Shown: one piece after another, positions 3,410-61,582 of the stretch | How positions within the stretch are numbered: position 1 is the first letter of the stretch | Layout: each line of letters opens with the position of its first letter | Origin: Tubiluchus corallicola | Taxonomy: Eukaryota > Animalia > Priapulida | Direction of reading: 5' to 3' | Assembly (NCBI GenBank): GCA_030141605.1 | Contig: JAQGDQ010001059.1 | Location: 1-64,000 of the forward strand | Length of the DNA: 64,000 nt | Position numbers and translations under genes: made by a program | Notes under the pieces: model-generated | Database searches by the model: none | What the model was told of the DNA's origin: nothing | Seen by the model: the letters and a program-made list of their open reading frames with translations, nothing else

Positions 3410-3572
3410 ATGGAAGATTACTGTCGCGCTGTACTAAAGGTGGTAGTTGCTCAAATTTGCCAGAACCTCGGTTGGAACAGCATCCAAACCACGCCGTGTG
3501 ATCTGCTGGTCGATATCTTGCATCGTTACTTAGAAGATGTAGCAAGAACCGCACACCGATATTCAGAGCAGT
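3410..3572 (+). CDS. TAF3: TAF3 coding exon 1 (histone fold)
   Basis: ATG at 3410; donor GTAAGA at 3573; an acceptor TTTAG ending at 3378 lies upstream, implying a 5'-UTR intron or outron. Confidence 0.93.
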
Positions 3573-6500
3573 GTAAGACTACTTGGTTTACTTAAAGCAG
3601 GGGTGTGCAAATTGCGGCCCGCCGAGAGAATTTGTGCAGCCCGCGAAGAGATTTGTCAACCTAATGAAAGTGCGGCCCGGGTGATTAATTAAGTGTATCC
3701 AGCTGAAGTCCGTACCACGATCGCAAAGATAGTGCCGGTAGTTTTTTCTACTAGATCGGATGCCATTAACCCTTACAAGACGGTTGTAGCTTAATGTCGC
3801 TGTACTACACAGACTGTGTGATACACATTTCTAGTATGCAATGTAATGAAATTACCACTATCTATCCTGAAAGTAGAAATATATGGTTTGTAATATAAAT
3901 TTTAATAACTTCTAAAATAGTTTCTTGAGTGTAGTAGTAATGATGTACGCAGGTCGGATGCAAAAAAAAATCGTTATTTGGCCTTTCTGTACTTGGCTCC
4001 TTGATCAAACTGCCTGCGGCACGCAGGAATTGCAGGAAAGTTTAATGTGGCCCGGCTAGTCAGATAATTTGCACACCCCTGATTTAAAGCAAAACAGGAC
4101 GATTTTCGCATCCTACCCGCATCTAGAAGTATGGTAAACTGTATGCCAAAGCACTTCTGATAATTAAATAATAGGCTTAAAACTTAATTAACAGCGGATG
4201 AGCCCAGCTAGTGACGACATCACAAACGAACATTATTTTCAACAGCACAAATGTTCCACGAGTGTGTTGCACATGTTTGCGAAAGCGAAAATTGAAGTAC
4301 AGTGCTACTGAACAACATTTATTGTGTTGCACTAAAACTAGGCAAGTTTTAAAGTATAAAGTTAAATTTCAAATTTACCGTTGTGTTCACGCGTGAGCTG
4401 TCGAACGTATGGAATTTGTCACAGACTAACATTTCTGAACTGAGAGGTACAGCACCTGTTTTTCGTGCAATGCATTTCCAAAATGCAGCCACTAGTGCCC
4501 ATCTAACTAACAAAAGGCGAAATGCATGTAACAGCAAAGAACTAGCCATGCCATTACGAAATTACTTGCGGTAATAATTCTTTCATGTAAGTCATTATTT
4601 AAAAAACAGTATGTTTCCTTTAAATATATTAAAGAGTAGATTCTTTTGACATACAGTTTAAGATTGGCTCCGGTTTTACTTTAAAAATGACAAAAAGATG
4701 TAAAAATGGACAGGACTTATGCGGCGCTTCTGTTCAACTTTAAATGGATGAAATAATAATAATTATTATTAATTAATTAATTAATTATTATTAATAATTA
4801 TCCTAATAATTATTCCGTGAGTGTCTGGTGTTATTACAGATGTACAGTGTTCCCTCACTTACCGCGGGTGTTCCGTTCCAGGCCCACCCGCAATGAGTGA
4901 ATTTCCGCGAAGTAGGGATGCTATACGTATTTAATACTTACACGTTTGGGTGTCAGCGTAGGGCTTGAATAAATTCAGTCTCTAGTGAAAATTTCACAAA
5001 TAGCATACAAGAAAACAAATTGCACGGTACCTGAGCCAATCAGCGACTGGGATATAGAGCAACATTCTCTGATTGGTCGCTTTCCATCAGTCAACCAATC
5101 GTGTGTTGTGTACAATCTCACATCGGTAAGTAGCATCTCAAACAGGCGCAAGTACTACATTTCGTTTTTGGCGTGTATTCATCCGCCGAATAAATACACT
5201 ATTTACTGTAAATGGTAATTTTTTATGATTTATAATATTCTTTGAAAACCCGCGAAACAGCGAGTCCGCGATAAATGAACCGCGAAGTAGCAAGGGAACA
5301 CTAATTGATGAATTTGTCGCATACATACTTTCATTCTAAATGTAAACCTGCACATTAGAAAATTCTTTGCTACTCATATGGAGTGAAAGTTACTTTATTA
5401 TTATGACTTATCACTTTGCGACAATTATAGTAAATGTTGTGTTGAACAACCGAAAAAATTGCTTATAATGATGCATTTGTAAACTGTTTCTGCTCAGGTT
5501 TGATTGCAATGCATCTAGCATGTTTGTTAACCTTGTCTTACTGCACTTATTTCACTTAAAAAGGTAATATATGCTTTTAGGTTCTGTCAGTGGCATCGCT
5601 AGGGAGGTGCAGGGGTGACACCGCATTAAGTGACACCGATCCTAGCAATGCCCCCTGGGTTCTGTACTCTCACCTGTTTGACTGTTATAACTCTCACCTG
5701 TTTTCCCTTCCCCCGCTTTCACTTCTCGAATCTTCTCTTGGCACCTCCTCCTGTTTGACCATCCCCGTTGGTGACACATAATCATCCGGTTTTTCTAAAG
5801 AATTTTAGTGCTGTAGTTTTGTCCAATATGAATCATAATATTTTAATAAAGATTCTTCTTCTTCTTCTTCCCAGTTTTTCCCTATTCGGGGTCGCCGTTG
5901 TGAATGAGTCTTCTCCACGCATTCCTGTTGTTGACCATCTCTTCATTTATGTCTTCCCTTCCCACATGATCTTCACCGACTCTTCTTTTCGGGTGTTCAT
6001 ACCATCGCAATCTTGCGAGGCTTCCACTACTTTTACTGTTCCTCTGATATTATTATTTCTAATTTTATCTCTTCTTGTTATTCCCACCATTCATCTCAAC
6101 ATCCTCATCTCCACCACACCCATTTTCTTCTCTTCCGTCTTCTTTAGAGAAGCTACTTCCAGCCCATAGATCAGAGCATGTCTGACCACTTCTTGTGGAC
6201 TTTCCCTTTAAGTCTCACTGACTGATTCATAGAAGGTTTTGGCGCAGTTTTTACAGGCAGATGCCCTTCCTGACCCTAACCCTCCCTATTTATCCGGGCT
6301 TGGGACCGGCACTGAGTTGGGCTGGCTTGCCCCCCCCCCCAGTGGTTAGGTTAATATTTTAACAAAGATTAATTAATGCATTATCAATCGCTGATTTGCT
6401 CTATGTGATTTGCAGTTGGTCGCACGGACCCCGTGTTGGACGATGTTGGGTTAGCTTTTAGAGATCTTGGCATATCTGTTAGCGAGCTTGAGGACTATGT

Positions 6501-9500
6501 TAGAGAGGTGAGCTGCAGTTGTTAATCTTTTTTACGAACTGGCCTTACTTCAGCTATTTGTTAAAGCACAAGAAAACACTTCATAAACATAAAGCTTAAA
6601 AATTCGTTTTGAAATTTTATATCACTTACATACTGCCTTTATGCATGCAGGACTTTAATCAGCAATCATGCTGTATAAAACGTGTAAATTTAAACTTCCG
6701 TGATGACCGTTAGACGCAGCCATTTTCACGACAGGTCATTTGAAACAAGTTTAGATAACATTTTGTAAAGTTTGAAAAAATAATCAGAGCATTCGTAGCG
6801 CACAAATCACTAACTAAGAAAAATTTTAAATTACTGTATCTTGTCAATAAGATTAAAAATACGTTTTTTAGTTAGTAAGTTTTGCACCCTGGAGGGCGAG
6901 TCAGCGACATTTTACCAATCGGTGAAAACATTTTAAACAATTAATAATTTTCTTTTCTAGTTACATAAGTCTTTCTAGAAGGTAAGCGAAAATCTAAGTA
7001 ATATAGATTTGCACGGAAAGTCTTTTGGGACATAATTTAACATTGCTTTCTCTTCCCTTCATTTACATTTGGTGCATGACGTCATGTAATGGCGACTTCG
7101 GAACAGTATTGCGGGAGATTTAAAATGAAAACAAACTAAAATTCCTTTCAGTGCGAGTAAGATATACGCATAAAATTGCTATAAAGTAATATAATTTTTT
7201 AAGACGATTTTTCTGAAACCTACTTTAGGTGCCCCTTTTCTTGTCCTTTAAGCATTTTTCTTTCTTAGACAATTTTGCTCTTATAAATGTACATCTACAT
7301 TGGTTGGGTACCTAGGAATTCTTTTATTATATTTCGGTGGTAGTGATCTGAGCATTATTTGGTGCTAGGTGACCCTGTTTTGAACAAGTCTTTTCGTAGT
7401 TTCGTAGTGCGCACGTGCACTTGCTGTAGGTCAAAGGTTAATTCTACCACAACAACGCATATTAACTACAACCGTCAAAATTGTTGTGCATGTGCGTGAC
7501 GTGCGTAAAGCAAAATTGTCTGCCGCATCAGTTCAGTCACTTCAGTTTTTTCGCAAATTTTTCTTAATTGCGCATTAGTCTGTGTGCCGAGTAATTTGCT
7601 AGCAAGATCTTTCTGGGGAACAAAAAAATGAAATAGGTAAGGTTCTAGCTAGCTGTCGAAACTGTTACTATTACAAAAGCATGATCTATGAGGTGTTTTA
7701 AAGTGTAATGTTTGACCTTTTCGCGACCATCTGAAAAAGAGAAAAGGCTGACATTTGTAAAGTGGATATAGTAGGTGTGTCACAAATGCTTACGTTTTTT
7801 CATAATTACTTTCTTGGGTTTTTCATTATACAGCCTAGTCTCGTTATCTCGCCACTGTCCGTCTAGGGCAAATTTTTGGCGAGAGGCGAGTATGGCGAGA
7901 TAACGGGAATATAACGAAGTTAGTCTATATGTATACACATAATAGTTGATTAACATAGTGTTCCTCTATGTACATATAAAATATATTTCGCATTATGATA
8001 CCAATCAACATGTAAAGTTGCTCACACTTTGTGGAAACTCAAACTTAAACGCAGCTTTGGTGTTAGAGAGTAAGGATATCGGTGACGCTTTAGTTTCTCT
8101 GCGCATTAACCAACCACAGCACTCCTAATCTAATCCTGGTGAGACACACACTAGATTAATTATGTCTGTCTATCGAGTACAGCAGCATTGTCTACATACC
8201 GCGGTTATATTGATCGACACGCGGTAAATGTATTGATCGATTCACCTCTGAGTTTGTCTGTTTGACGACATAACGAATATAGTTTACATCAGCACTCATC
8301 CTAGCATGACGTGGCGAGGGCGAGAAGCGAGGGTGGCGACTTAACGAGGTAAATATCAAAGCAAGAAATCCGTGCTGGTACTTTCTATGGGAGAGACGAG
8401 TTTGGCGGCATAACGAGGGGCGAGATAACGAGGCTAGACTGTAATAAACTTGATTCTCGTTTTGTAGGTGGAACCGATACCGTTTGCACAAAAAGCGCGA
8501 GCATTTCCGGTTCCCAAGCCAAACAACCTGCATTTCCCGGATCCCAACTGCAAGGAGGTGCGGACACGCCCTGATCACATACCCCGTTATCTACCGCTCA
8601 TGTATCCGGAGGGCAATGGTGAGTGTGTCAGATTTCTTAACAATAGATGGCACCACGTGTTCAACAAAGTTTTAATGCTCGTTATAAGTCTATTGTTTAA
8701 TAATGCATTGCTGTAACCTCGGATTTCCTTGAAATGCAATGCTGTTGTTGTTGTTGTTGTTGATTTTAAAGAAAAACTGGACGATTGTGTAAACATTAGT
8801 TCAAAATAATGTCTGCTGTAAAATATTGGAAACTACAACAGCTTTTTTTAATCAAAGCTTCAGGAATGAGAATTTTCCACGGATACGCTGAATTCCGAGT
8901 TTTTGGAAGACCAGTAGTGCCATTTTTGTAAATCGCGTAAATTCGTTGAGAAAGTTTTTACAGACCCAGTACATTATTTCACAATCTGACCGCTAGGTGG
9001 CAGGCCGTCACTTTGTTTACATCACGTACATCAGTGTAACCACGTGTATATCTCTATGTGTAAAAATATAGAATCAATTGTGCGGAGTTATTTGAGTCAA
9101 TTGCAGACAGTTTTTATATACTTTTGCATAGGAGCGGCCAGTACTTAGGCGTTTTTGAGACAATTAGGTATCATGTATCCTTGATAGTTGGGTATTTTAA
9201 ATTATGCATGAAACAAGGTAATTGATATTTCAAGTCCACTTAGAGGTTCTCTGTGGTCACAAAATTGCGATTTGCCCCCAAACCCTCGGCCTGTTTCAGA
9301 GTTTTTTGCAATTTGTCATTCTCATCCCTGAAGCTTAAATTAAATAATAATTGTCTCGAATGGTTAAGCGTTCGTCTGTGTCGACACTTAGAGCTCATTT
9401 TCGTGATATCGCACAAACATCTTACAGCAATCTTCACTTGCGCACGCTTGTTTGAAGTGCAGGGAAGATGTCTACTATTGCACAAATTGTCTATAGTTTG

Positions 9501-30616: not shown

Positions 30617-33600
30617 CTACCTCTTGCCTCTACCAAACTCCGCTCCGATCATCTCCCAAATGTTAGCTCTGCCGGAATCGTCTTCGTCCGATTGCTTCTG
30701 GGGACTACTCGTCTCCCTTGAACTTTTGCTCTGCGCTTTGCTGCTTTCGGGGTCAGTTATTTCTGAAGCTTTGCCTGACACCCCCGAGGAATCCGTGTCC
30801 ACCGGAGCTTCTGCTTCGCGTGTGTCAATCGCTTTACATTCAACGGTATTATCGCTAGCTAAGGGTTTTTCCACAGCTGTCTCGCCTTCCATCTTTATTG
30901 GAGACGTGGTCGGTGTGGTACCGCTCATTTCTTTCTGCAGAACGTCCGGAGACGAACGCCGGAAATTGAAGGAAACTTCCTCGTCGACGTCTTGTATGAG
31001 GTCCTCTCCCGATTCGCTCAATGCGGGCATGCTTCCGCTACTGCTGTCACTGTCGCTGACGTGGGTGATGATGCGAAACGTTCCCGTATCTTCTGCAACA
31101 TCTCCCTCTTCGGTGGGTTTCGAGTCGTTTTCTGTTCTGCGCGAATCAGCAAAAGTTGCAGGCGAAATAGATGGTTCTGGCTTCTCGGTGCTTTGGGTGC
31201 CGCTGCTACGTCGATGCCTCAAGGTGAAATCGAGAACAAAGCTATCGTATTCCTCTTCCCGAGGACGTGCGTCTTCATCACCGACATCAAAATCAACGAT
31301 CACATTATGAGATATGAGACTTTTTGGACGCGGTCTGTTTGGAGCAGGCAGTCCTGGCATTTTTGGCTTCTTTTTGCGGCCAGAGTAAGAAACTTTTGGC
31401 GTCTCTTTCATACTTGGGAGCTCATAATCACCGAGTTCAATCTCTTTTTTGGGACGACCCCGCTTCACGCTTGGAGGAGACACATAATCGTCGAGACTAA
31501 TCTCTTTTTTTGGACGACCTCGCTTCCGAATAACTTCTCCAGCCTGCTTTTTCTTACGTGGAGAATAAGAGATCTTTACCTTCTCTTTTAGTCCCGTTTC
31601 CAGGGGGATATGCTGCGGTACGAATTTCTTGGACAGAGTTTTCAGTTTCAATGGAAGTGGTTCTTGGGGAGCTTCCTCCTCCAGAGCTTCCTGAATGAGT
31701 GACTCACGGAATTTTGAAGGAGAGCTGATCCGCTCACCTTGCTCTTCCACACGTAACTTCCGAACAACCTTCTTGCGCCTTCCATTAGGCATGGGCTTTG
31801 ACTGCGGCTCAGTTGCTTCTTCTGTCTCGGATTTCGGTGGTGATTTAAACGCCTCTCCTTCGCCCCGATCAGTAACTCTCTTTAACTGAGCCAGGTATTC
31901 GACTGTCTTAGCTTGTTTCTTTACTGATGTCTTGGTTTTGTATGACGTTATTTTGGCACTTCCAACATTCTCTTGTTTGACTTTCATTGCTGCATCTTTG
32001 GAAGGCTTATTTGGAGAAGGTGTTCTCGGCCTAGTTGCTACTGCCTCTTGAAATCTAACTTTCTTGTCACTAGAAGGTGCTGATTCACTTGATAAGCCTG
32101 GAGATTTTTTAAGAATGCCTCCAACAGGTTTATAAGAAAGTACAGTTCTTTCTCGAAGCTTGGGTTTTTCATAATCATACCCAATTCCCGTGGCCGAATA
32201 GCTCCTTTTATGTATTTCTGGCAGATCTTCCTGAAGAACTTCCTCTGGTAAGCTAAGACGTTTTCTTGGAATATCCTCATCACTCATTCTCTGTGCTGCT
32301 TCTGATTTTATATGTTGCACCGTAGCTTCAGCAGTTCGCTTTTTGCCGCGATTCTTGATTACTGTGGTAGTTTTCTTATCTTCTACTTTAATCTTTTGTC
32401 TTTTGGTTTCTTTTCTCGCTCCCTCCTTGTTCACGTCCGCACTTTCACCTGAAACGCCAGCGTTGTCAACATTTTTCGATGTCCTCCTTTTCTTTGGTGG
32501 TAGTTTTTCGTCACCATCCTTACCTGTCACGTTCGACATTTTAGACGGTCTTTTAGTGGCTGAATTTTCTAAGAGTATAACTTCCTTTCTTCTTTGCCTT
32601 TCTGGAGACGTTATCATAGCTTTTTGCCAACCAGTGGGACGTCGTTTTCCTGGCGTCCCGACTGTTATAAACTGCTCTGTGTGTTCGGGAAGCTCAGTGG
32701 GACTTGGACTATCACCACCAACCCGGCCAAACTTTGCCGGGTCTTTTGGCAACATCAGCTTCAAGCTGCTAGACGCATGAGCAGGCACTGCCTTTGTCTT
32801 AGAGTCTGACATGTATGCAAGACCACCAAGACCAATCTGCTTCGCTTTTGCTTCTGGTATTACTATGAGATTTTGTTGGGAGGTACCAGTCGCAGAAGAC
32901 TCTTCCTGACTCGGACGATCCTTTTCTTTGCTCTTAAATATCTTGTAACGACCACCTGACTGCATTGGCGTGTATCTCATCATCATTCCTTTCATACGCT
33001 GCATTGTGTAGCGAACAGGGGACCCGGTCTCCTCATCAGTTGAAACCTCGTGTAGTACGGCAGCTGCCCCTTGCTCTGTGTCACTTTTTTGCGCACCTTC
33101 ATTTGTTTGAGGTTGCACTTCTGCATCAGTCTCTTTGCCAGATGTATCCGATTCCCCGGAAATCGTTCTAGCAGTAGCTGCCGGTGCCGGTTTCACTGCA
33201 GCTGCTGTGTCACCAGGTACAAGTTTCAGCATACCTGTTTTCGGATCACCTTGTAGAACAATTGCCTTGCTTTTCAGTTTCATGTAATCATCTTTTGACA
33301 GTTTCAGGACAAATGGTTGCTTCCCACCTTGGGGCTTGCTGGATGGAACGCTCTTTCCTAGCAAACGCTCAACAGGTGTCTGAACAGGAGCCTTCTTCTC
33401 TTCCTCAGAACCTTGGGAAGCCCATATAGGTTTCCTACGAACAGTCTGACCTGATCCAGGAAAAATATCCTTTATTTTCGCCGAAGATGCTTCAGCAGGA
33501 GCGCCTTCCTCCTGTATTGCTGTTGCTGTAGCAACACTATCGGCTGTCACAGAAACATCTTCAGAACTAGTTGCTTTGGCCATGGCACTGAGAACAGCCT

Positions 33601-36600
33601 CAGCAGCTGTTATTTTTCCAGGTTCAATTTCGATAGCGGATGGTTTCAGTATTTTTACAGTTCCCCTAGGAGAGGACACAGGCCCGGGTGCATGAAGTCC
33701 CGCTTCGCTGACTTGTATCGAGGCAAATCCAGGCAAAGCTGCTCCCAGATTCTGCCCCTCTTGACAGATAGTCTGTTTAACAAGCTCTGCCAACATATCC
33801 TCCTCGCTTTGTTTAGCTTGGGTAGACTGTACGACCGCTGATTCAACCTGAACATATTCACTCTCTGGAACAGACAGTGCGGAACCAGTTTTTGTACTGA
33901 CTACGGGAACCACAATATCATCGCCAAACTCTGCCTTCATGCGTTCAAACAGTGGAGGAACCGGGCTTATCTTTTCGCCAACCGAAGCGATGCTTTCACT
34001 CTGGGATTCACTTTCCTCTGTGGCATTGGACAGCAATTCCTGTTCCAACATCTGATTTAAGTCTCGTGCATTGTTAGCACTAGCAGTTTGCTGTTCTGAC
34101 TGTTCGGCTTGGCGAAGAATTTGTAGCGGATCACCAACATCAACAATATCTTGAGTAGCAATTTCCTCACGGGTCCATTGGCCCTCCATTGGAATGGTTT
34201 CTCGTTGCCAGTGTGTCATTGGTGGTATGCCAGCTGGCTTATAATCGTTATTTTCATTTTCAGCTTTTACTACTGGAATCTCTTCTTCATTTGCCATAAT
34301 GTTATCTGCAGGTTGTTCTGTGAATAGTTCCTTCAACATAATGTCTTCTCTGTAGCCATGAGGAGCTGACACCTCTACTTCCTGATTATTGTGCACCTCT
34401 TTATCAGAAATTATTGGGCTTTTCTTGCTTTCAGTATGTTCTCCTAGCAGTTCTGTTTCCAATACATCAGGCTGAATGGATACGCATTCACTCTGTTTTT
34501 CTATATCATACTGTCCTACAATATTGTGATCTGGAGATTCTTGCACCGTGGCTTGTTCATCGACTTCTTCATCATTACCATGATCAATATTTTCTGGTTC
34601 GTCACATATTTGTGCGACATGCTCAGCAGCTTCTTGAGACATGTCGTCTTCGAAATCAGATTCATCCTCTGAAGGTTCCTTAAAACTTTCGGAATCTTCA
34701 GAGTTTTCTTCTGCGTCTTTCTGCAAATGCTCAATGATCTCACTGCCGATGTCATGTTCTTGGGAATGAGTCACACCAGTTGCTATTGCCTCATTTCCAC
34801 TTGGAATTTCTGTAATTCTACAAGAAGCCTCAGCAAGATCTGGTCTAGGATTGCCTAGTATATTGCCAGAGTTTTCATCATTGTGTTGATCACCATCTTC
34901 ATTCTCCTGTGAAATGTTGCTGCTTGTTTCTAGCGACTCAGGAATGGTTAGAGATTCGTTATCTGGAACTTCCTCAGTCAACTCTTGCCTCTCTATACTA
35001 TCGGCCTCTTTTTCAACTTCTTGCTGATACTCAGGTTCAGAACTAAGTATCCTAGAATTTGCTGCTTCGAAGTCTTCCGATTCACTATCTCCAGTTGACG
35101 GTTCTTTAAAACTGCCAGAATCACTATCACCTTGATGCTCAGCATAAACTGCATGCTCCTGTTCTGATGTACTTATCGAGGTGTGAATTTCCTCAACTTT
35201 CTCTGCAACATCATTGTCACCAACTGGTTTCTCTTCCGCATCTTTATCATCTTCAAGTTGTTGCTTATGATCAGTAGGCAAACCATCATCCCAGATATGT
35301 TCCACAACTTTAGGATTTTCCTCCTCCAGTTCGCCTGCCTCTTTTAGACCCCCATCTGAGCATTGTTGTTCTACTAATGATGTTGCTGGTGTCCACTTTT
35401 CTGGGACTGATGTGCCTACTTCCTCCCACTCATCTGTCCCTTTTAAACCCTTCTCAGAATGTTCTTCCAATCTTTCTGGGGCTAATGTGTCTAACGTAAC
35501 ACCACTTTGTTTTTCCACTTCTTCCACTTCCTGTCCCTTCTCAATTGTCTCCGATGCCAATTCCGTTGAGGGTGCATCTTTTTCCGCAAACTGCGTATCT
35601 GCAGGAATCTCCTGATCATCAGCTGTCATTGACACTGCTGCCGGTTGCCCGATACGTTGCGCGCGAGATAACGGCATGGAATCGGCACATTTCACTGGTA
35701 ACTGTACATGAAAATCCTGTGCTTCAGACCTAGAGTGCTTATCTGCTAAAACGTTTGTCGGATGATCTATAAGCAGTGTCGAGGGACCCATGGTTGGCAC
35801 GTAGTTTTCCTCTTCAGCAGGCGTTGCAGTTGAATCCTTAGAAATTTCACAAACATTGTTCGCCGAGGACAGACGCGAAGCATTTTTAGAGTCTTCCGTT
35901 ATAAGTTCTGCTTTCCTAAGCGAAAGTACATCTGTCGGATGATCGGTTGACAATGTGTTTTCTGTCATTGTTCGAACTTCGTCCTCTTCGGGAGCTGCCG
36001 TTTCTGCTTCCATTTCATGTCCTGGGGAGGAATATTCCTGAACCCCTGCCAATGCAGGTTTCTCACTAAGTGGCGGCATTTCAGAAACATGTTTTTCCAG
36101 ACTTTCTTCGCAGGTCTTGGTGTTGGCATTGCTGCTCATTTCAATGTCTTGGGTTGCGTTCGGGCTTTCAGCTTCCAAAACTGAGGCGCCTGTATGATGG
36201 TGGCGTTCTGCAAGCTCTACGTTTGGAAGATCTTCGCTGGTCCGAGGTTCCGGAAGAGGTATTTCTCTCACTAACAGAGGAATATCTGTACATTGTTGAC
36301 CATCCGGTTGAATCTGAACAAGTTCCTCAGCTTGTCTGGTATCCGGATTGCCAGGATCGGTATGTGTATCAGTCTTTTCTGTTGGATCAATATGATGATC
36401 TGCATTCTTTTCGTACACGTCCATGTTATTGCCATTCCCTGGAAATACGTCACGAAAGGTTTGCAGTGAACCTTGTTGCTGTGTTTCCAAAACAATGCCA
36501 GCTTGGTTATCCGGATTTGGAAGATCCTGTTCAGCCTTGCGCACTTCGACGTCTGGTCTAATACTCATTTCGCCGTGACGTGTTGTTGGCATGGCTTCGC

Positions 36601-38974
36601 TGCTTTGACCGTCAGAAGATTGTTGCGCTTGCTCAGTACCACTTGGTCCCGGAACCTGCTGTGGATTAGACTGTAATTCGTCGCTCGACACTTTGTACTG
36701 CATCTCCCTAACAACATTCACAACTTGGTTTGTATCTCTTGGCAACAAGCCGTCGTTTTCCACAAAAATGATAGCAGGATCTATCGACATTTTGGTGGTC
36801 ATTACAGCTTGATCTAATAGATCACAAGTGGGTGAGAGATAGTCTTCCGTGACGCTGAGCTTTCCCGACTGACGCGAATAGACGGTTTCCGTTGATTCTC
36901 CAGTAACTTCCGATTCACTAAGGGCAATCATGATGTCATTAACGATGCTTCCGACACACTGCGATATAAATTCGCCTCGCCGCGGTGAGCCGACTATATC
37001 ACTAGCCGGAACGTAGTCACACATGAGACAGGTGCAACCCGGTTTATAGGAATGATTCAGTTTGGCTTGAGTACTAGTCCCACTCTTCCGTGGAGACGGC
37101 TTACGCGATTCTCTGACAGGCCTCTTCTGCTTCTTCTTTGCCGGCGTCTCCTCGACGCTTGACTTCATGATCTGTTCGAACGTGTTTCTATCCTCGATGC
37201 TTAAGACTTGGTCGAGCGGAAAGATCTTGTTCAATGTCTCAAAGATATTCACCGGTAAATTCACCAAGACTTTTTCTGGCGTCTCATTCTCTGAGCCACT
37301 TGGCTTCTTCTTCCTCGGTTGCTTTGGCTTCTTCATCGGCTTCTCCGTCTTGGGAGTCGATTCCTGCTCTCGCAAGACGTTTGCCGAAGAAGAGTTGAAA
37401 ACGTTGCCAACGTGATCCGAATCGCCATTCAACGGCTGGTGATTGGTGAAACCGTTACGACTGCCTTTCTTGTTGGTTTTTGTGTGTCTCGCTTGAGACG
37501 GCCCCGTCTTATTTTGTGACTTTCTCATTACCGGTGGGTTACCGCCACTGAAGGTTCTGCCTGTAGAATCAACCAGATGATTTGACAACATATCGAATAT
37601 GTTACTGTTGTCCTCGCTTCTTGCGTCCAACTGATTAGCTGATGAAACCATTGTCTGCCTACTGTGACTGTTCACGTTTCTCCCGTCATTTCCCGGTCGA
37701 AAAAACAGATCTGCCACGGGCGGCAACTGATTACTAGAAACGGATTGTGAATATACCATGTTTGCCGGACGTGTATAAACGGGTGGAAATGGGGCAGAAC
37801 TTGGGATGCTCTCCTGCTGCTGTTGTTGTTGCTGAAAAACTGCTGCCGCCTCTTGAGTGTGAGGTGACGGGTACAAAGGAGAAGATGACAACACGTTGTT
37901 TGATTGACTCAATGAACTGTTAGGCACAGAAGAGCTAGGTTGCAGATGAAACTGAGTGTTAGCGTCTGGTGCAAAAGTGTGACCATTAGTCCGGTATAAC
38001 AAGTGCTTAGCCAATTGCGAGTCGCCTCTTCCGGTCAATAATGGCTGCCCCGTTGTCGATGATTCCGTAAAAAATCGTGCTCCATCTGCTGCTGTCCGAA
38101 ACTGCTGCTGGCGCTGTTGATGTGCCACACCCTCGGGAATGTGCCTAGTTTGTGTTGGCACAGCTACTGTCACATCAGCACTGGATGTCCCTATCTGTCC
38201 ATTAACGGCATTCGATATCGGCAAGCTAAGTACGAGCACAGGGGAGTTTGTAGCCGCTCTTAGCTGCTCGGGCTGCGTTTCTCCCATGGAAGAATATGCG
38301 TTTAATTGAAATGCGTTATTATTAGGCATGCTTGCAGGTGTCACGACGCGGTTGTTAACAAAATATTCAGAATTGGGTTGTGCGGAGCTGGTAAACGGCA
38401 GATGGACAGACGTCTGCTGTGACCCTGCCTGACCTCGACTGGTGGGATACCGCACACGCTCTTGTCCAGGGATAACATACTGTTGTGCCATCTGGTGTGG
38501 TGCAGGAGAAACATTCTGGTGTGGCGGCTGTAAAACTACTTGATTTGGCCTACAAGAATTCACGGCAGCGGCAGAAATACTGACATTATGAGGAGACAGT
38601 CCATCGGCACTGACTTGTCCTAATTGCCCTCGATTCTTCCGCAGCACGGACTGCATCTGAGGGTTCTTTTCTTGCATCATTTGTTGGTTGAGGGGCGGGG
38701 CGACACTACTCGCAAATGTGTACCTGTTCATCTCAGTCGACCTTGCAGGTATTCTCTTGGGAGTTTCTCTAGCCTGGACGACAGCCTTTGCGGTCATGGC
38801 GTGAATACTGGCAAGATTATCTTTAACCATTTTTTCCTCCGTGTCTTGAACAGCTTCTCGATGCCCGTTTTGGTTGCCGGATGCAGAGGACAATGTGGCG
38901 GCGGAGCTCGGTGCCTTCAAGTGCTTCTTTCTCTGCTTCTCGACTCCATCAATTGATCCTTTGGGTTTCTTGTG
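30617..38974 (-). CDS. Giant (8358 nt) terminal exon of the ZNF292/RLF-like gene
   Basis: 2788-aa ORF; acceptor TTTGTTTCAG ending at 38975; low-complexity acidic, Q-rich and basic blocks with two AT-hooks. Confidence 0.9.
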   Translation of the reverse strand, partial: HKKPKGSIDGVEKQRKKHLKAPSSAATLSSASGNQNGHREAVQDTEEKMVKDNLASIHAMTAKAVVQARETPKRIPARSTEMNRYTFASSVAPPLNQQMMQEKNPQMQSVLRKNRGQLGQVSADGLSPHNVSISAAAVNSCRPNQVVLQPPHQNVSPAPHQMAQQYVIPGQERVRYPTSRGQAGSQQTSVHLPFTSSAQPNSEYFVNNRVVTPASMPNNNAFQLNAYSSMGETQPEQLRAATNSPVLVLSLPISNAVNGQIGTSSADVTVAVPTQTRHIPEGVAHQQRQQQFRTAADGARFFTESSTTGQPLLTGRGDSQLAKHLLYRTNGHTFAPDANTQFHLQPSSSVPNSSLSQSNNVLSSSPLYPSPHTQEAAAVFQQQQQQQESIPSSAPFPPVYTRPANMVYSQSVSSNQLPPVADLFFRPGNDGRNVNSHSRQTMVSSANQLDARSEDNSNIFDMLSNHLVDSTGRTFSGGNPPVMRKSQNKTGPSQARHTKTNKKGSRNGFTNHQPLNGDSDHVGNVFNSSSANVLREQESTPKTEKPMKKPKQPRKKKPSGSENETPEKVLVNLPVNIFETLNKIFPLDQVLSIEDRNTFEQIMKSSVEETPAKKKQKRPVRESRKPSPRKSGTSTQAKLNHSYKPGCTCLMCDYVPASDIVGSPRRGEFISQCVGSIVNDIMIALSESEVTGESTETVYSRQSGKLSVTEDYLSPTCDLLDQAVMTTKMSIDPAIIFVENDGLLPRDTNQVVNVVREMQYKVSSDELQSNPQQVPGPSGTEQAQQSSDGQSSEAMPTTRHGEMSIRPDVEVRKAEQDLPNPDNQAGIVLETQQQGSLQTFRDVFPGNGNNMDVYEKNADHHIDPTEKTDTHTDPGNPDTRQAEELVQIQPDGQQCTDIPLLVREIPLPEPRTSEDLPNVELAERHHHTGASVLEAESPNATQDIEMSSNANTKTCEESLEKHVSEMPPLSEKPALAGVQEYSSPGHEMEAETAAPEEDEVRTMTENTLSTDHPTDVLSLRKAELITEDSKNASRLSSANNVCEISKDSTATPAEEENYVPTMGPSTLLIDHPTNVLADKHSRSEAQDFHVQLPVKCADSMPLSRAQRIGQPAAVSMTADDQEIPADTQFAEKDAPSTELASETIEKGQEVEEVEKQSGVTLDTLAPERLEEHSEKGLKGTDEWEEVGTSVPEKWTPATSLVEQQCSDGGLKEAGELEEENPKVVEHIWDDGLPTDHKQQLEDDKDAEEKPVGDNDVAEKVEEIHTSISTSEQEHAVYAEHQGDSDSGSFKEPSTGDSESEDFEAANSRILSSEPEYQQEVEKEADSIERQELTEEVPDNESLTIPESLETSSNISQENEDGDQHNDENSGNILGNPRPDLAEASCRITEIPSGNEAIATGVTHSQEHDIGSEIIEHLQKDAEENSEDSESFKEPSEDESDFEDDMSQEAAEHVAQICDEPENIDHGNDEEVDEQATVQESPDHNIVGQYDIEKQSECVSIQPDVLETELLGEHTESKKSPIISDKEVHNNQEVEVSAPHGYREDIMLKELFTEQPADNIMANEEEIPVVKAENENNDYKPAGIPPMTHWQRETIPMEGQWTREEIATQDIVDVGDPLQILRQAEQSEQQTASANNARDLNQMLEQELLSNATEESESQSESIASVGEKISPVPPLFERMKAEFGDDIVVPVVSTKTGSALSVPESEYVQVESAVVQSTQAKQSEEDMLAELVKQTICQEGQNLGAALPGFASIQVSEAGLHAPGPVSSPRGTVKILKPSAIEIEPGKITAAEAVLSAMAKATSSEDVSVTADSVATATAIQEEGAPAEASSAKIKDIFPGSGQTVRRKPIWASQGSEEEKKAPVQTPVERLLGKSVPSSKPQGGKQPFVLKLSKDDYMKLKSKAIVLQGDPKTGMLKLVPGDTAAAVKPAPAATARTISGESDTSGKETDAEVQPQTNEGAQKSDTEQGAAAVLHEVSTDEETGSPVRYTMQRMKGMMMRYTPMQSGGRYKIFKSKEKDRPSQEESSATGTSQQNLIVIPEAKAKQIGLGGLAYMSDSKTKAVPAHASSSLKLMLPKDPAKFGRVGGDSPSPTELPEHTEQFITVGTPGKRRPTGWQKAMITSPERQRRKEVILLENSATKRPSKMSNVTGKDGDEKLPPKKRRTSKNVDNAGVSGESADVNKEGARKETKRQKIKVEDKKTTTVIKNRGKKRTAEATVQHIKSEAAQRMSDEDIPRKRLSLPEEVLQEDLPEIHKRSYSATGIGYDYEKPKLRERTVLSYKPVGGILKKSPGLSSESAPSSDKKVRFQEAVATRPRTPSPNKPSKDAAMKVKQENVGSAKITSYKTKTSVKKQAKTVEYLAQLKRVTDRGEGEAFKSPPKSETEEATEPQSKPMPNGRRKKVVRKLRVEEQGERISSPSKFRESLIQEALEEEAPQEPLPLKLKTLSKKFVPQHIPLETGLKEKVKISYSPRKKKQAGEVIRKRGRPKKEISLDDYVSPPSVKRGRPKKEIELGDYELPSMKETPKVSYSGRKKKPKMPGLPAPNRPRPKSLISHNVIVDFDVGDEDARPREEEYDSFVLDFTLRHRRSSGTQSTEKPEPSISPATFADSRRTENDSKPTEEGDVAEDTGTFRIITHVSDSDSSSGSMPALSESGEDLIQDVDEEVSFNFRRSSPDVLQKEMSGTTPTTSPIKMEGETAVEKPLASDNTVECKAIDTREAEAPVDTDSSGVSGKASEITDPESSKAQSKSSRETSSPQKQSDEDDSGRANIWEMIGAEFGRGKR

Positions 38975-41900
38975 CTGAAACAAAAAAGAAACTTTATTCC
39001 AAAGTACAGGACATATTTATATTTCTACAAACTAAAACTGCAAAAAAAAGAACATGGCATGACTCTATAATAAAATGCACTGCCATGCGCTATATACAGT
39101 CGACCCTCGTTAAACCGGACCCCGTTAGCCCGGATATCGGATAAGACGGACGTCATCCGTGGTAAAGGAAACTGACCGATTTCCGCCAGAGCCGGAGTGC
39201 TAAACACAACACGGCCTACCAACTGTACAATAATTTCTTTATCCTCACAGGTTAACTATTTTAAAGTAATATACAGTATAGTATATAGTACAATGTATAT
39301 AGACCTTATTAAGGTGATTATTCCTGTATAATATAGACCATATATAGGCATATCGGATAAATCGGACCACCCACCCCCCCTAATTAGTCCGGTTTAACGA
39401 AGGTTGACTGTACTGTCTATAAATAATTAACAATACAGTAACAAAAACTTGAATCGATGACACTATAAAATGTGCGCAACAATCATTAATACACGGGTTT
39501 GCGCAATAAACTTCCTTTTCAGACATCAGAAAATTCTCCCAGTTATATGTTTAACATATACTTGCATAAAGACATCCCAGACACTTGAGGCAATACACTT
39601 TTACCTACTCTAGTACAGTACTCTGATCACCGAAGTTAAGCAACGTAGAGCCTGGTTAGTACTTGGATGGGTGACCGCCTAGGAATACCAGGTGCTGTAG
39701 GCTTGCGGGATGCCCACACTGTATCTTGACACTAGGCGGAAGAGCTGCACAAGCAGCCAACGGCTAAGGGGCGGAGGAGGTCAAGTGACCCAACAGCCAT
39801 GTGTAGAGAAATAAACCTTCCAAATCAGGAGTGGAGCCCCGAAGGCGGACCAGTGCAGCATGTTCACTGACTCCGGCAGCTCCTGCAGCCAACCTGGTGC
39901 CAAACGCATCGCTCCGCTTTACTTTGGACTACACCAGGGAGGAAGAGAGGGGGTTCCTGTTGTCTGTGCAACTCAGGATCTCCATACACCTTGCCCAGGC
40001 GTGCGCCCTGGAGATGTTCAAGGAGCGGACTGCTCAGCCACAGTCGACGCTGCAGCTCCATCAATGTGATCAATAACTGACTCTCTTGGCGCACACTCCA
40101 TTGTCTTCCGAGACAGAAGGATGCCAACAGCGCACTTCAAACAGTTACGAAATAAGTGGTTTCTGCTCTGTAAGAAAATTTGTTAGAAAAAATCCAAAAT
40201 GCTGCCATCTAGCGGACAAAAAGATGACAACCAGCGATTAAACAATGGCCGACAGAAGGGGACTACAATGCTAACCTTCTTCGGATGCTGCTTCCTAGCT
40301 GCAACAATGCTCATTGCTAGCTGACGTTGTATATCATCGGGCAGGATGTCATGCCAACCCTGCTGCTGCTGCTGCTGCCGTTCTGCATTACCTGCAAAAA
40401 AGGAAAATTCATAAAAACGTGAGATGAAATGCAGAACGTATACAGCGAAAATAGCAAGTCAGTTAGAAATACTGTACATAGTACGCTAAACACCAAAATA
40501 AATCTGCAAACGAACAAAAACTCGTTCCAGTATTTATTACTGCTAATTTTAGTCATAGATACAATGAGAAACATATTAACTACGATAGTAAACTACACTA
40601 AATAAACTAAAAGTAATATTGAACAACAAAAAATCAGTGCAATAATCACAGTGAAGAAGATAGTTCAAAGCAAATGCTGATCTAGCAAACCAGAAACAAA
40701 ACTGACTGAAAATTACTCTGAAGTATATACTTTAGCATCGTAGTTGTATAACAGAAACAAAACGGAACGAACTAGTCATGCAAAGTGCGTGTCTAAACAT
40801 GACAGTATTTGAGAATTGTGCAAGTTACAAGTAGCTACCATCCAGAAAAGAAAAATTAACTGGGAAGTCTTCTACCAACACTCTGCTAAGTTACTAACTA
40901 TGAATGTTAAGTTATTAACTATGACTGCTAAGTTACTAACTATGACTGCTATAGTTATTAACTATAACTGCTAAGTTATTAACTATGACTGCTATAGTTA
41001 TTAGCTATGACTGCTAAGTTACTAACTATGACTGCTATAGTTATTAACTATAACTGCTAAGTTGTTAATAATGACTGCTATAGTCATTAACTATAACTGC
41101 TAAGTTATTAAATATAACTGCTAAGTTATTAACTATAACTGCTAAGTTACTAACTATGACTGCTATAGTTATTAACTATAACTGCTACGTTATTAACTAT
41201 AACTCCCAAGTTACCAACTATAACTGCTGAGTTATTACTATAACTGCTATGGTACTAACTATAACTGTTAAGTTATTAACTATAACTGCTAAGTTATTAA
41301 CTATGACTGCTGTAGTTATTAACTATACCTGCTAAGTTATTAACTATGACTGCTATAGTTATTAACTATGACTGCTAAGTTATTAACCTGCTAAACATAT
41401 TAACTATGATAGTAAACTATACTAAATAAAGTAAAAGTAACAGTTAACAGCAGAAATTAACTGCATTAACATCAAGCAGAAATTAACTGCATTAACGGCA
41501 AAGAATAAATTTCTAAGAACATGCTGATCCAGCAAGCCAAAAAGGAAATAGACAGAGAATTACTAAGAAGTGCGTTCACTTTAACATCATGCTTGTATAA
41601 TGGAAAACAAAACAGCATGAACTAACCACGCACAGTAACACGACCAAGCTACTAAATTTTGATTAAACAATTTAAACGTCATGATACAATGCAATTTGAA
41701 CATCACGATACAAAGCAATTTGAACATCAGGGACTGGGAAAATATTTCCCGGGAAAGCGATCATTACGAGCAGGATCGTGTTAACTGTAAAATGGTTTCA
41801 AATGCAAAGTCTCGCGAAATTTGTAAGAAAAGAATTCAGTAAGAGAAAAACCACAATCCAACTTTGCTCATTCTTGGATCATGTCACAAATCTGTCGATC

Positions 41901-52900: not shown

Positions 52901-53319
52901 AATACGTGTTATGCTAGTTTTGTAATGTCAAATGTAAAAATAGTGTAAATGTAATGAGTGAAATTTATGCAATGTAAAGCATGTTTCTGTTAATTGTGTT
53001 ATGTTAAATGTATATATAGTGCAAGATGTGTACGCAAAATTTAATGTATTTTTTGTAATATTGTTTTGTAAAAATATTTTAATATGGTGTTTGTAAATAT
53101 TTCCATTTATTGTATATAATTAGACCTTAGTTTTGCAAGAAAAAAATATCACAGTTTTCATGTTTCATTTTAAAAATGCCAAATTTCTCATTCACCAAAT
53201 ATTTAATGGGAGTCGCAGTGAGATTTGAATTAATCAACATGCTCAGTCATTTACAAATAGTTAAAAAAATAGTTATCTACTTTTTCAAATAATTAAAGTG
53301 AAAATTCCTGTTATAAGCC

Positions 53320-55935
53320 TCAGATTCCTCAGCCACAGTAATCGACCATTTCATTTCGAATAGTAACAATAATTTCGTAGCATATGATACTTTCCCGTGT
53401 GATTATTCAGATCATCATTTCACAATATTAGTAGATAAAATGACCCCACAGCATAATAATAACCAAAATTCAGTCTGGCATTTAATGAGAGACTACGCCC
53501 AATACAACAAACATTCATACTTAATCGACTTAGCAAAAATGAACTGGACCTCCATATATATGACTGATAAAATAGATACACAAGTTAATATTCTGACATA
53601 TAATGTCGAATATTGCCTTAATGTACATGCACCATATAAAAACGTAAAGCAAATCCCACAACAAAGCAAACTCAATAACGAAAGTACCTGGACAACACCT
53701 GAACTTGACAAACTAAGAATAGCGAAAAACAGAATGTATAATATATGGGAAAAGAACAAAACTAAAAACAATCATAACAATTATAAAAAAAAAGAGAAAT
53801 CAATTTAATAATCTTAATAAATGCTTGAAAAATAAACATATACAACAACAATGTAAAAACGCAACAAATACCAAAGAAAAATGGAAAATTATTAACAATG
53901 TAATAAATAAATGCCGTAACAAACTAACGCGTGTTGACGAAATTAAGATCAACAACACTGTTATTACAAAACCCAAAGATATTGCCAACGCGCTAAATGC
54001 AATATTCCTGAATCTTGGAAATTTTAAGGGAGTGGCTTCTCATATTAGCAATAATATAATTAATAAATTAAAAAACAAATCGTCTAACACAGTATTCTCA
54101 TTCAAAAGCGTCACAGTAGGAGAAATTAATGACATATTAAATAACCTAAGTTCCAACAAAGGGAGTGGACCATCAGATATTCCTATCAAAATTCTAAAAG
54201 ATAGCGCATCTGTAATAGCCCCGCATATGACTTACATTGCTAATCAGATAATTATGAGAGGCGAATTTCCAACGGTATGTAAAATGGCAAACGTGACTCC
54301 AATCCATAAAAAAGATCCAAAATGTGATCCCATGAATTATCGCCCAATTTCCGTAATCCATTGTTTCGGCAAAGTTTGGGAAAGGGTAATTTATGATCAG
54401 ATAAATTCATATGTAAATAAACATGAACTTTTATCAAAACATCAGTTTGGCTTCCGTAAACACCATTCAACCATTGACGCCCTAATACGCACAACAGAAA
54501 ATTGGAGACATAGTTTAGACAACAAGCAATACATTTTAGCAGCATTTTTGGATTTAAGTAAAGCTTTCGATAGCATTAATCACGAACTACTTTACGATAA
54601 TTTAAAACAAATCGGATTAGATTCGATATCGTTAAAACTGATACAAAATTCTCTCAAAGATAGACAACAACGAGTAAAGTTAGATACAACCAACTTTTCT
54701 GACTGGGCCACGTTAAACAGAAATATACCGCAAGGAACACTACTAGGTCCGTTATTATTTTGCCTATATATAAACAACATATCCAGTGTATTAAAACACT
54801 CACAAATAACGCAATACGCTGATGACACTACAATCTACATAGCCCATGAAAATGTCCAAACTGCAAAAAATTATTTAGAAGAAGATATAAAAAATATAAA
54901 TATGGCATTTAGTCATTACAAGCTAAAAATGAATAATGACAAAACAGAATTCACGATACTGTCACCCTCATTAAATACTAATGATGCATCATCAACCACT
55001 TTGACAATAGATAATGCTGTAATCAAACAAACTAACAATGTTAAATTCCTGGGCATACAAGTAGACAATAATCTTTCATGGGATGATCACTTTAATAACA
55101 TATACACAAAAATGGCATCTAGCACATCATATCTCCGACAAGTTGAAGGGCAACTAACAAAGGAAACTAAAACACTAATATATAAAACTTTAGTTCTACC
55201 ACACTTCTTATATGGATGTACGCTACTTCAAAAAACCAAAAGAGAAAATTACTTAAAATTAAATCTCCTTCAAAACTATGCGTTGAGATTGATAGCTGGG
55301 TACTCATACAAACACAAGGCAGGTAGACAAAAATTCAAAGCTTCAACAACTAACCTGAGAAAAACTTTAAAATTCCCAATCATTGAAGCACACAAAGAAT
55401 ATTTTACTCTGCTTTTTATATTTAAATACATTAACAACATCAGCAAACCATTCCAGAATAACAGATTTATCTTTTTTCCAAATCCTATCGTTAATTCCAG
55501 AACAAGCAATCTAAAACAAATTAGGACAAATACCCACTATGGAACGAACTCTGTAATCAAACAAGCAATTTTACTTTGGAATTCTCTACCATTACAGGTT
55601 AAACAAATCAAGTCCCTATCAGCATTTAAAACAAAATTAAAATCACTAATATTAACCAGATATGAAATACCATCACACCAGTACGACAACATACACACTA
55701 ATTCCGAATTCATATACCCACGGCCATATTAATTAAATTATAGTTTTTTTTTATATTTTTTTGTGTATAGTTGTAAATATGTTTGATTTTATTCGTCATT
55801 ACTGCACAGTAGTTTAGATTGCACTGACGCATTTGCCTTCAGCAGTGTAAGTTTTTATTAACTAACACTGATTGATTATCTCTATAAAGTTTTTATCAGT
55901 GATTATCAATGTTTTTAATGGCAAATAAAGATTAT

Positions 55936-56894: not shown

Positions 56895-56976
56895 AGTATG
56901 CTGTGTAGTTTTATGAGCACCTATTTGAAGAGTGTCACATATTATAGGATACTTGCACTGCCGAAGTTTGAGAACC

Positions 56977-57630
56977 ATGTCAGATGAGGAATTCGAAAGT
57001 GTCGTACGGCAATTTCTGCAACATTTGGAACCTGAGAACTCACCTGTGATAAAACAATGTGATTGGTCGCTTGTAAATTCTGAAAATGAGTACAGACAGC
57101 GATTGGACGAATTGGAGGCGCTTAAAAAGGAGAAGGAAAATCTGTCGGAGAAATACGAAGCGTTTCTGGTGAAAAAAACGAGACAAGAAGAACTGAGAGA
57201 AGAGCAGCAGGAAGGGTTGGACGAGAAAAGGGCAGAATTGGAGACACTGCGAAAGAGAATAACCGAAGTTAAAGAAGAAAACAACTTGCTGATTGGCGAA
57301 CTAAAAAAATGCGAAGAAATGGCGGAGAAAACGAACGAGGCGCTGGCTTGTCTAGATGTCCAGTCCGTGAACCACGTGAGCCGTGAGTTGGCGCTGTACA
57401 AGAAGCTCACACACGTGCGCTGGCACGAAGACCCGGAGCCGGGCAAAGTGAAGGGCGTGGTGAGCGAGAAGACGGACGCGAAGGTGTTCGACTTGGACAA
57501 GAATAAGTATTCTCAGTTTTTTATAACAAACTACGTCTGGAATCTGATGACACCTGCAGACGAGGATGAAACGGATGATTGTAACAACCTGCATCAGGGC
57601 ATAGGAAACTTGAATTTAGATACCAACTAA
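56977..57630 (+). CDS. SPC24: Kinetochore protein Spc24 (Ndc80 complex), single coding exon
   Basis: Long coiled coil followed by an RWD-type C-terminus LYKKLTHVRW-EDPEPGKVKGV...FDLD...SQFFITNYVWNLM typical of Spc24. ATG at 56977 follows an acceptor ending at 56947; AATAAA at about 57705. Confidence 0.88.
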   Translation: MSDEEFESVVRQFLQHLEPENSPVIKQCDWSLVNSENEYRQRLDELEALKKEKENLSEKYEAFLVKKTRQEELREEQQEGLDEKRAELETLRKRITEVKEENNLLIGELKKCEEMAEKTNEALACLDVQSVNHVSRELALYKKLTHVRWHEDPEPGKVKGVVSEKTDAKVFDLDKNKYSQFFITNYVWNLMTPADEDETDDCNNLHQGIGNLNLDTN

Positions 57631-60681: not shown

Positions 60682-61003
60682 TTATAAACTCAACAGAAAT
60701 CGAGGTTCGGTATAACATAGCAGCCAGGAACCAGGTCTATATGAGTGATGCATTTATATTAACTTGTTATAAATACAATTTTAGGTTAAATATTTATCTA
60801 CTTTTTATGTCAAATATTATTAATTTTCCTTTTAAATAACATTTCATGCATGTTGATCACACAAATTAAAGAAATGTTAATGTACTTGATCTTCTGAAAC
60901 ACGTTGACTTTTCCTTTAATTTTGCATTTTTTAGGTGAAATTGGTAGGATCTGGCGCTTGACCTCGAGCAGGTAACTTCGCAAACACCTTTATACGGAGG
61001 AAA

Positions 61004-61582
61004 ATGGACAAAGTAGCTCTGAGATTCTCAAAGCTTACCGAGCATGCATTCGCTCCCACGAAGGGCTCGAAACTCGCGGCTGGCTATGATTTGTACAGTG
61101 CGTATGACTACAAAATACCTTCCAAGGGTCAAGTGATGGCAAAGACGGACATTAACGTGGCCGTACCAGAGGGAAGTTACGGGCGAGTAGCTCCTCGCTC
61201 GGGACTCGCGCTGAAGCACAGTATCGACGTGGGAGCCGGAGTCGTCGACGCCGATTACCGCGGCAACCTGGGCGTCATCTTGTTCAACTTCGGCGACAGC
61301 GAGTTCGTCGTGAAAAGAGGCGACAGAATTGCCCAGCTCATTTGCGAGAAGATCTTCCTGCCGGAGCTGAAGGAGATGGAGCAACTCGACGACACCGCTC
61401 GCGGCGAGGGCGGATTTGGCTCGACTGGGGTGTCACATGTTGACCAAAATGGAAGCGTCGATGCAGAGGCAACGGCAAATGATGTTACTGAACAGAACGG
61501 GGAAGAAACTAAGCCTAATAGGGCAGAAGCCAAGAAGCCTCGCCTAGAGGTGGAGCAAGATCGTGGTGATGAGAAGGCGTGA
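61004..61582 (+). CDS. DUT: Trimeric dUTP diphosphatase (dUTPase), single coding exon
   Basis: All five motifs present: [37 protein letters not shown]. An in-frame stop lies upstream of the ATG; acceptor ends at 60934; AATAAA at about 61626. Confidence 0.97.

Follow-up and report, generated by a model that had tools for sequence, protein, structure and literature searches.

An abundant short RTE derivative with a twister ribozyme head in Tubiluchus corallicola, and a copy within TAF3 whose ribozyme is probably impaired

An insertion of 498 bp in the first intron of the TAF3 gene of Tubiluchus corallicola raises the question of how a short, non-coding retroelement obtains its 5' end and its copying enzyme, and whether the copy at this locus could itself give rise to others. 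The whole stretch of DNA that was analysed, here called the window, comprises 64 000 nt (contig JAQGDQ010001059.1, positions 1 to 64 000), and the element occupies 5855..6352 on its minus strand, reading from A6352 to G5855. It is bounded by a target site duplication (TSD) of 18 nt with one mismatch, i.e. 6353..6370 (minus strand; 5' copy) against 5837..5854 (minus strand; 3' copy), or of 19 nt if A6352 and A5836 are included; when the downstream flank was shuffled 2000 times, a repeat of 19 nt never appeared, the longest being 14 nt. The 5' copy provides the U before the predicted ribozyme cut as well as a weak 5' strand of P1, with an ambiguity of 1 nt at A6352, and the first AA of the 3' copy is common to the tail. 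This tail, (GAA)n at 5855..5870 (minus strand), consists of six GAA units, the final AA being shared with the TSD, and is also found on the RTE of contig L003. For the window copy, in which it was examined, the duplication is as from target-primed insertion. The original prediction of an insertion with an 18-bp TSD and a (GAA)n tail is therefore confirmed, apart from the mismatch, which it did not mention; of its span, 5855..6353, the end at 5855 holds, while 6353 is the U of the host flank and the element ends at 6352.

The surrounding gene was identified as TAF3 by its Bromo_TP exon (E 9e-15 against human TAF3) and a PHD exon at 22050+. Exon 1 lies at 3410-3572 and exon 2 at 6416..6507 (plus strand), which places the element antisense within intron 1, in the predicted orientation, with 63 nt separating it from exon 2 downstream. 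Because of this antisense position, TAF3 transcription cannot supply the RNA of the window copy, nor can the copy cut the pre-mRNA; this is one locus, and a single locus shows no bias.

The window holds several other features. Another high-copy repeat begins in TAF3 intron 2 from 6561 onward, with a summed depth of 2.4e5 in run X1 (see below) and 146 loose contig ends at 6561. The plus strand carries a sequence at 39583-39703 that resembles 5S rRNA but is degenerate in its 5' half (50.7 bits), which may be a pseudogene or a 5S-headed SINE, open frames of another non-LTR retrotransposon at 53317-55732 (RVT_1, E 5.5e-37), and apparently intronless open frames for Spc24 and dUTPase at 56929-57630 and 60962-61582, respectively. 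On the minus strand, a single low-complexity open frame of 2799 codons at 30617-39016 is probably one large exon.

The 5' end of the element matches the type-P1 twister ribozyme (RF03160) over the full length of the model (6276..6357, minus strand; model positions 1-68 of 68, 59.3 bits, E 1.5e-12 by cmscan of 5500-6700), as had been predicted from its architecture. The match is significant, though its score is below the Rfam gathering score of 67.2, and in a scan of the whole window at the gathering score the twister was absent from the output, which reported only the 5S-like match. The related heads in contigs L001-L006 likewise score below the gathering score, at 45.3-61.3 in 8/8 cases. By comparison with the Perere-3 retrotransposon (PMC8501958), the cut is predicted between U6353 and A6352. 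All four pairs of P2 form between CCUA (6350-6347) and UAGG (6288-6285), in line with the perfect stem claimed before, and P4, a three-pair pseudoknot CCC/GGG, the UAA at the cut and the GAGGG motif are also present. Among relatives, which were chosen by a twister-core pattern and whose pairs were read by script, P2 varies yet stays paired, i.e. CCUA/UAGG here and CCCA/UGGG, CUCA/UGAG or CUCC/GGAG elsewhere. P1, for which weak pairing with the host flank had been foreseen, has two of four canonical pairs; this stem is reported to be dispensable for twister (PMC5113685; PMC11662667). P3 (6310..6344, minus strand) is a stem-loop with a stem of 7 bp (6344-6338/6316-6310) in the fold and a G run whose length varies among copies, other copies having indels at 6329-6330. 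A minimum-energy fold recovered P3 and not the pseudoknotted core (z -0.66), which is expected for such folds and carries no evidential weight.

Both ends of the element resemble those of an autonomous RTE. The head measures around 134 nt, the ribozyme being followed by the rest of an RTE 5' UTR (6219..6275, minus strand) that aligns with the heads of L003, L011 and L014; overall, the head matches that of L003 at 78 % over 117 nt (positions 1-117) and that of L011 at 76 % over 125 nt (positions 1-125). The junction between head and tail probably lies at 6219/6218, a position inferred from two contigs. L003, which may be a tandem or collapsed repeat, has the same head followed by endonuclease (EN) and reverse transcriptase (RT) frames, and also an RTE-type 3' end with a GAA tail. 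The remainder of the element (5871..6218, minus strand) is a decayed RTE C-terminal coding remnant with a short 3' UTR, as originally noted: in tblastn, the C-terminal ORF of the twister-headed EN-RT of L003 aligned in two frames with the element, at positions 164-496 (E 3e-13) and at 340-465 (E 1e-4). The DNA alignment with L003 reaches a shared terminal motif and the tail, and besides the main deletion it shows two smaller internal ones, in the vicinity of 6017 and of 5953. At both extremities, the element thus corresponds to an autonomous EN-RT element, its head to the 5' end and its 3' part to the 3' end with the tail.

Among the relatives of the L003 C-terminal frame are many fish proteins, as well as EN-RT proteins encoded singly on contigs of 3.2 kb and measuring 990-1000 aa, so that by architecture (one EN-RT frame of around 1000 aa on 3.2-kb contigs) and by similarity the putative partner fits the RTE type; the single-frame layout is also stated for Perere-3 (PMC8501958). 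The endonucleases of L003 and L008 share 30 % identity, a comparison that does not discriminate between clades. A protein search with the RTE remnant recovered no autonomous partner, none of its nine candidates having E 0.001 or better, which is weak evidence. The twister-core pattern occurred at six loci in metagenome contigs and at nine in genome contigs, but at none in viral contigs, and none of these 6 and 9 loci is a copy of the window element's family. The nine genome contigs, L007-L015, are bacterial genomes or MAGs that carry twister cores of the eukaryotic-retrotransposon type, six of them with endonuclease-like coding sequence downstream, and these cores are likely assembly contamination. 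The twisters of L008 and L010 closely match, from P3 to L1, a Schistosoma sequence given in Table 1 of PMC8501958, and no TSD was found at L011.

For the question of a family, assembled contigs of public runs were aligned to the locus, with X1, X2 and X4 representing one sample and X3 a second study; the window itself may derive from X1. Summed contig depth, which is not copy number, reached 2.7e5-1.2e6 in X1 in bins over the element compared with 154-933 in the unique flanks, i.e. it rises around 1000-fold over the TSD-bounded span, and X2, X3 and X4 show the same depth shape over the element. Relative to the family majority, the window copy has 11 listed substitutions and one 1-nt deletion, i.e. 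12 differences in around 440 assessable positions. This divergence of around 2.7 % suggests that the family is fairly young.

Taken together, we consider it likely that the element is an abundant combination of an RTE head and an RTE 3' end, probably freed by twister self-cleavage and copied by the enzyme of a partner LINE, with an impaired ribozyme in the window copy. According to this scheme, a transcript started at a host promoter would enter a copy in the sense direction by read-through, and the twister, needing the flanking base before AA and little or no P1, would then cut to leave a 5' end at AA. An RTE EN-RT protein would bind the 3' end of this RNA and insert it by target-primed reverse transcription, giving a TSD that adjoins the AA, and each new copy would thus lack anything 5' of the cut and rely on its new flank.

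The window copy deviates from an intact twister at one base of the core, a point absent from the original prediction. The 5' strand of the two-pair pseudoknot (6345..6346, minus strand) reads AC in place of GC: C6345 pairs with G6299, and A6346 faces C6298, so that this A-C mismatch leaves the pseudoknot not fully paired. Counting from the cut (A7, A8 and four P2 bases), A6346 corresponds to G13 and C6345 to C14 of the rice twister Osa-1-4, and L4 maps base for base, rice C25-C31 being 6304-6298 according to mutant labels in the supplement. In the relative heads with an intact 5' strand of P2, the equivalent of 6346 is G in 12/12, representing around seven distinct types, all GC; eleven of these were counted by script and L015 was read separately, and L007, L008, L009, L010 and L012, which are without such a strand, were excluded. 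The consensus of loose contig ends from sister copies also has G at 6346 (8 contigs in X1, 7 in X3), a biased sample, since clipping favours contigs with a G-run indel plus a mismatch, and head consensus rows from runs X5 and X10 likewise carry G at this position. The substitution tables appear to omit sites less than around 30 letters from an alignment end, every listed row having a contig at least 31 letters away, so that 6346 itself probably falls outside them.

In the rice Osa-1-4 twister, Kobori and Yokobayashi found G13 to be among four positions at which any change gave a relative activity below 0.20, a measure that is not linear in rate, so that the real loss of rate is larger (PMC5113685). 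Among 2625 natural twisters, one imperfection in the two-pair pseudoknot, wobbles included, was reported to lower mean cleavage from 0.76 to 0.53, most non-wobble mismatches being strongly reduced (CHiTA study; PMC11662667). Because A6346 breaks a pseudoknot pair whose loss cuts the activity of the rice twister to less than 20 %, the ribozyme of the window copy is probably impaired, and the intact ribozyme of the original prediction is not borne out, the equivalent of rice G13 being A. Considering the 12 differences in around 440 positions, the A in the pseudoknot and the antisense orientation to the surrounding gene, the window copy is probably a dead end.

It would be compatible with the same family and mechanism that the window copy still cleaves usefully, or that A6346 marks a sizeable subfamily which spread with the mismatch stabilised by the long P3, and we regard either as rather unlikely. 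The readout at 6346 covers clipped contigs, and the 14 (X1) and 9 (X3) contigs aligned through 6352 fall outside it. Furthermore, the loss due to pseudoknot imperfections is two-peaked rather than absolute in the CHiTA data, whose authors suggested stacking of a long P3 as a stabiliser of the pseudoknot (PMC11662667), the window copy has a P3 of 7 bp, and the single mutant G13A appears to retain 0.17 rather than zero, its column position being inferred from the PDF text of the supplement (PMC5113685). Against this stand the G in all 12 intact relative heads and in the readable sister copies, and the drop of the X1 summed depth across the terminal 10 nt to around 4 % of the interior, as would be the case if most copies differed there from the window copy, but G-run indels and truncation explain it too.

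The 5' ends of other copies were also examined. At least 14 contigs in X1 and at least 9 in X3 leave the locus at 6352 (among 24 of 323 loose-end rows), and their agreement of 0.48 and 0.53, i.e. around 0.5, beyond this position indicates unrelated flanks; in X1, depth beyond 6360 comes from the window locus only. The contigs clipped at the variable G run (X1 at 6337, n=8; X3 at 6340, n=7) have a consensus that runs through the AA and is incoherent thereafter. Contrary rows also exist, i.e. 16 contigs at 6340 in X1 that read differently, 11 mixed contigs at 6339 and one X3 contig that starts at 6302. Hence, the predicted start at the AA just 3' of the scissile bond is found in the window copy, where the TSD adjoins it, and the expected pile-up of 5' ends at AA is seen in part of the contigs, the rows at 6340 and 6339 and the start at 6302 departing from it.

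Alternatively, the RTE head might contain an RNA polymerase II promoter, the 5' end being where transcription from it begins and the twister an inherited passenger. No listed site of the twister core varies by more than 1.6 % in X1, and such low variation may reflect youth and not selection, which would suit a passenger. However, the 5' end coincides with the scissile bond in the window copy, in the sister contigs, in one of the two copies in L005 (see below) and in Perere-3, and a ribozyme that cleaves needs no second cause for this coincidence; we therefore think a promoter-set end improbable.

The element could be a one-off, internally deleted full-length RTE LINE without a family, considering that no second copy was found in the 64-kb window and that the same runs contain longer forms with loose ends at 5952 (6, 4, 10 and 2 contigs in X1, X2, X3 and X4, respectively), at 5955 (4 contigs in X1) and at 6219, where two X3 contigs diverge into different sequence. 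The forms with loose ends at 5952 and 5955 lack the second deletion, and longer or autonomous relatives exist as a minority, seen as loose ends. At least four contig pieces from two studies (among 64 listed of around 24 400), however, span 6219/6218 by at least 31 letters on each side, and since they differ from the window by 5-14 letters each, they represent other copies. In addition, the X1 depth is flat across the junction, i.e. 7.0e5-7.5e5 over 6216-6242 without a dip. Bridging contigs and undiminished depth thus bear out the predicted family with a recurring deletion junction and largely refute a one-off deleted LINE, which is very improbable. The small size and non-coding character might suggest a canonical SINE that is transcribed by polymerase III and carries an RTE tail. 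This reading retains hardly any probability, since there is no tRNA gene in 5400-6800, no sense-strand B box within one mismatch of the consensus, and no Rfam tRNA, 5S or 7SL match in 5500-6700 at E up to 10, and since alignment of the head with LINE 5' ends starts at base 1.

The preferred reading, i.e. release by twister cleavage and copying by an RTE enzyme, involves no new 5'-end mechanism, since this has been published for Perere-3, including the P1 strand supplied by the flank (PMC8501958). Liu et al. (2021) reported that each of the 113 full-length Perere-3 copies of Schistosoma mansoni carries a twister variant at its 5' end, with TSDs that adjoin the AA and a flank that forms the 5' strand of P1, described cleavage in vitro and in reporters, and proposed transcription from host promoters (PMC8501958). 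Perere-3, which belongs to the RTE clade and has T-variant heads, shares with the window element the type-P1 twister at the 5' end, the start at AA, the adjoining TSD, the flank-supplied P1 strand and a short-repeat tail. In contrast, it is an autonomous element whose EN-RT frame is intact and whose repeats are GTAA, whereas the window element is a non-coding 498 bp with a GAA tail from another animal, its cleavage being predicted.

Non-autonomous RTEs with internal deletions have likewise been recognised as a class. Kojima (2018) described bipartite RTEs without an ORF, e.g. RTE-N2_Lch, RTESINE1/2, WALLSI3, MAR4_MD and Bov-A, and tied their intact 5' ends to ribozymes, citing HDV-like work in a passage that does not name the twister (PMC5786205). 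Like these, the window element joins RTE 5' and 3' ends by internal deletion, has no small-RNA head and preserves the outermost 5' end of the LINE, but it differs in retaining around 350 bp of decayed coding sequence. The R2 SIDEs and R2/R1 hybrid SIDEs of Drosophila also combine a 5'-terminal self-cleaving ribozyme with a LINE 3' end, and the RNA of R2 SIDEs is reported to come from the processing of a co-transcript with the host (Eickbush and Eickbush 2012, PMC3414825); their ribozyme is HDV-like (PMC3774820), and they are rare and site-specific to 28S rDNA, whereas the window element is twister-headed, dispersed and abundant. De la Pena (2020) stated in one sentence, as work in preparation, that truncated but competent twisters are conserved at the 5' ends of the RTE superfamily, and non-autonomous derivatives go unmentioned in that passage (PMC7761336). 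A further source covers ribozymes in RTEs and SINEs, the twister-headed non-autonomous RTE being absent from the passages concerned (PMC6765202). No paper on a twister-headed non-autonomous RTE was found in the open literature, although the supplements of Liu et al. and of the CHiTA study may list such loci. All component parts being known, the combination will seem neat rather than surprising to specialists.

Other twister-headed sequences were encountered along the way. Two elements of around 305 and 387 bp lie at L005:805-1110 and L005:2063-2450 (the same loci occurring in L002, L004 and L006), with TSDs of 17-18 nt and tails of (GTT)n or (GTTT)n; their head is RTE-like and their tail is unlike that of the window element, resembling what we take to be a CR1/L2-type end. 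One of the two starts at AA, and in the other the TSD and the AA are separated by 13 additional bases. In X1 and X3, loose ends at 6278-6280 (4 and 2 contigs, respectively) show the same twister followed by other downstream sequence, which suggests a second twister-headed family in these runs. X5 and X10 derive from two other organisms, in which 8735 and 1102 contigs, respectively, match the head (6234-6352), with almost no depth below 6234; two large loose-end rows of X5 (380 and 151 contigs) end in different 5' sequence without AA before P2.

It is tempting to speculate, although we hold this to be doubtful, that the RTE twister head is a portable substitute for the polymerase III head of SINEs, defining a promoter-less, high-copy class of animal elements with exchangeable tails. 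If true, the window family would be one member, the 300-390-bp elements in L002, L004, L005 and L006 would represent a member with a swapped tail, and further members may be found in the abundant heads of X5 and X10; lacking the tail of the window element, these heads could equally be 5' ends of autonomous RTEs. The flank and sense read-through would then decide which copies act as masters.

The finding would extend twister processing of 5' ends from an autonomous LINE of a flatworm to an abundant non-autonomous derivative in another animal, and make the window element's family the RTE counterpart of the R2 SIDEs. Since every copy has its own flank and most of the ribozyme is internal, the effects of flank, orientation and pseudoknot on the seeding of new copies are testable in an assembled genome.
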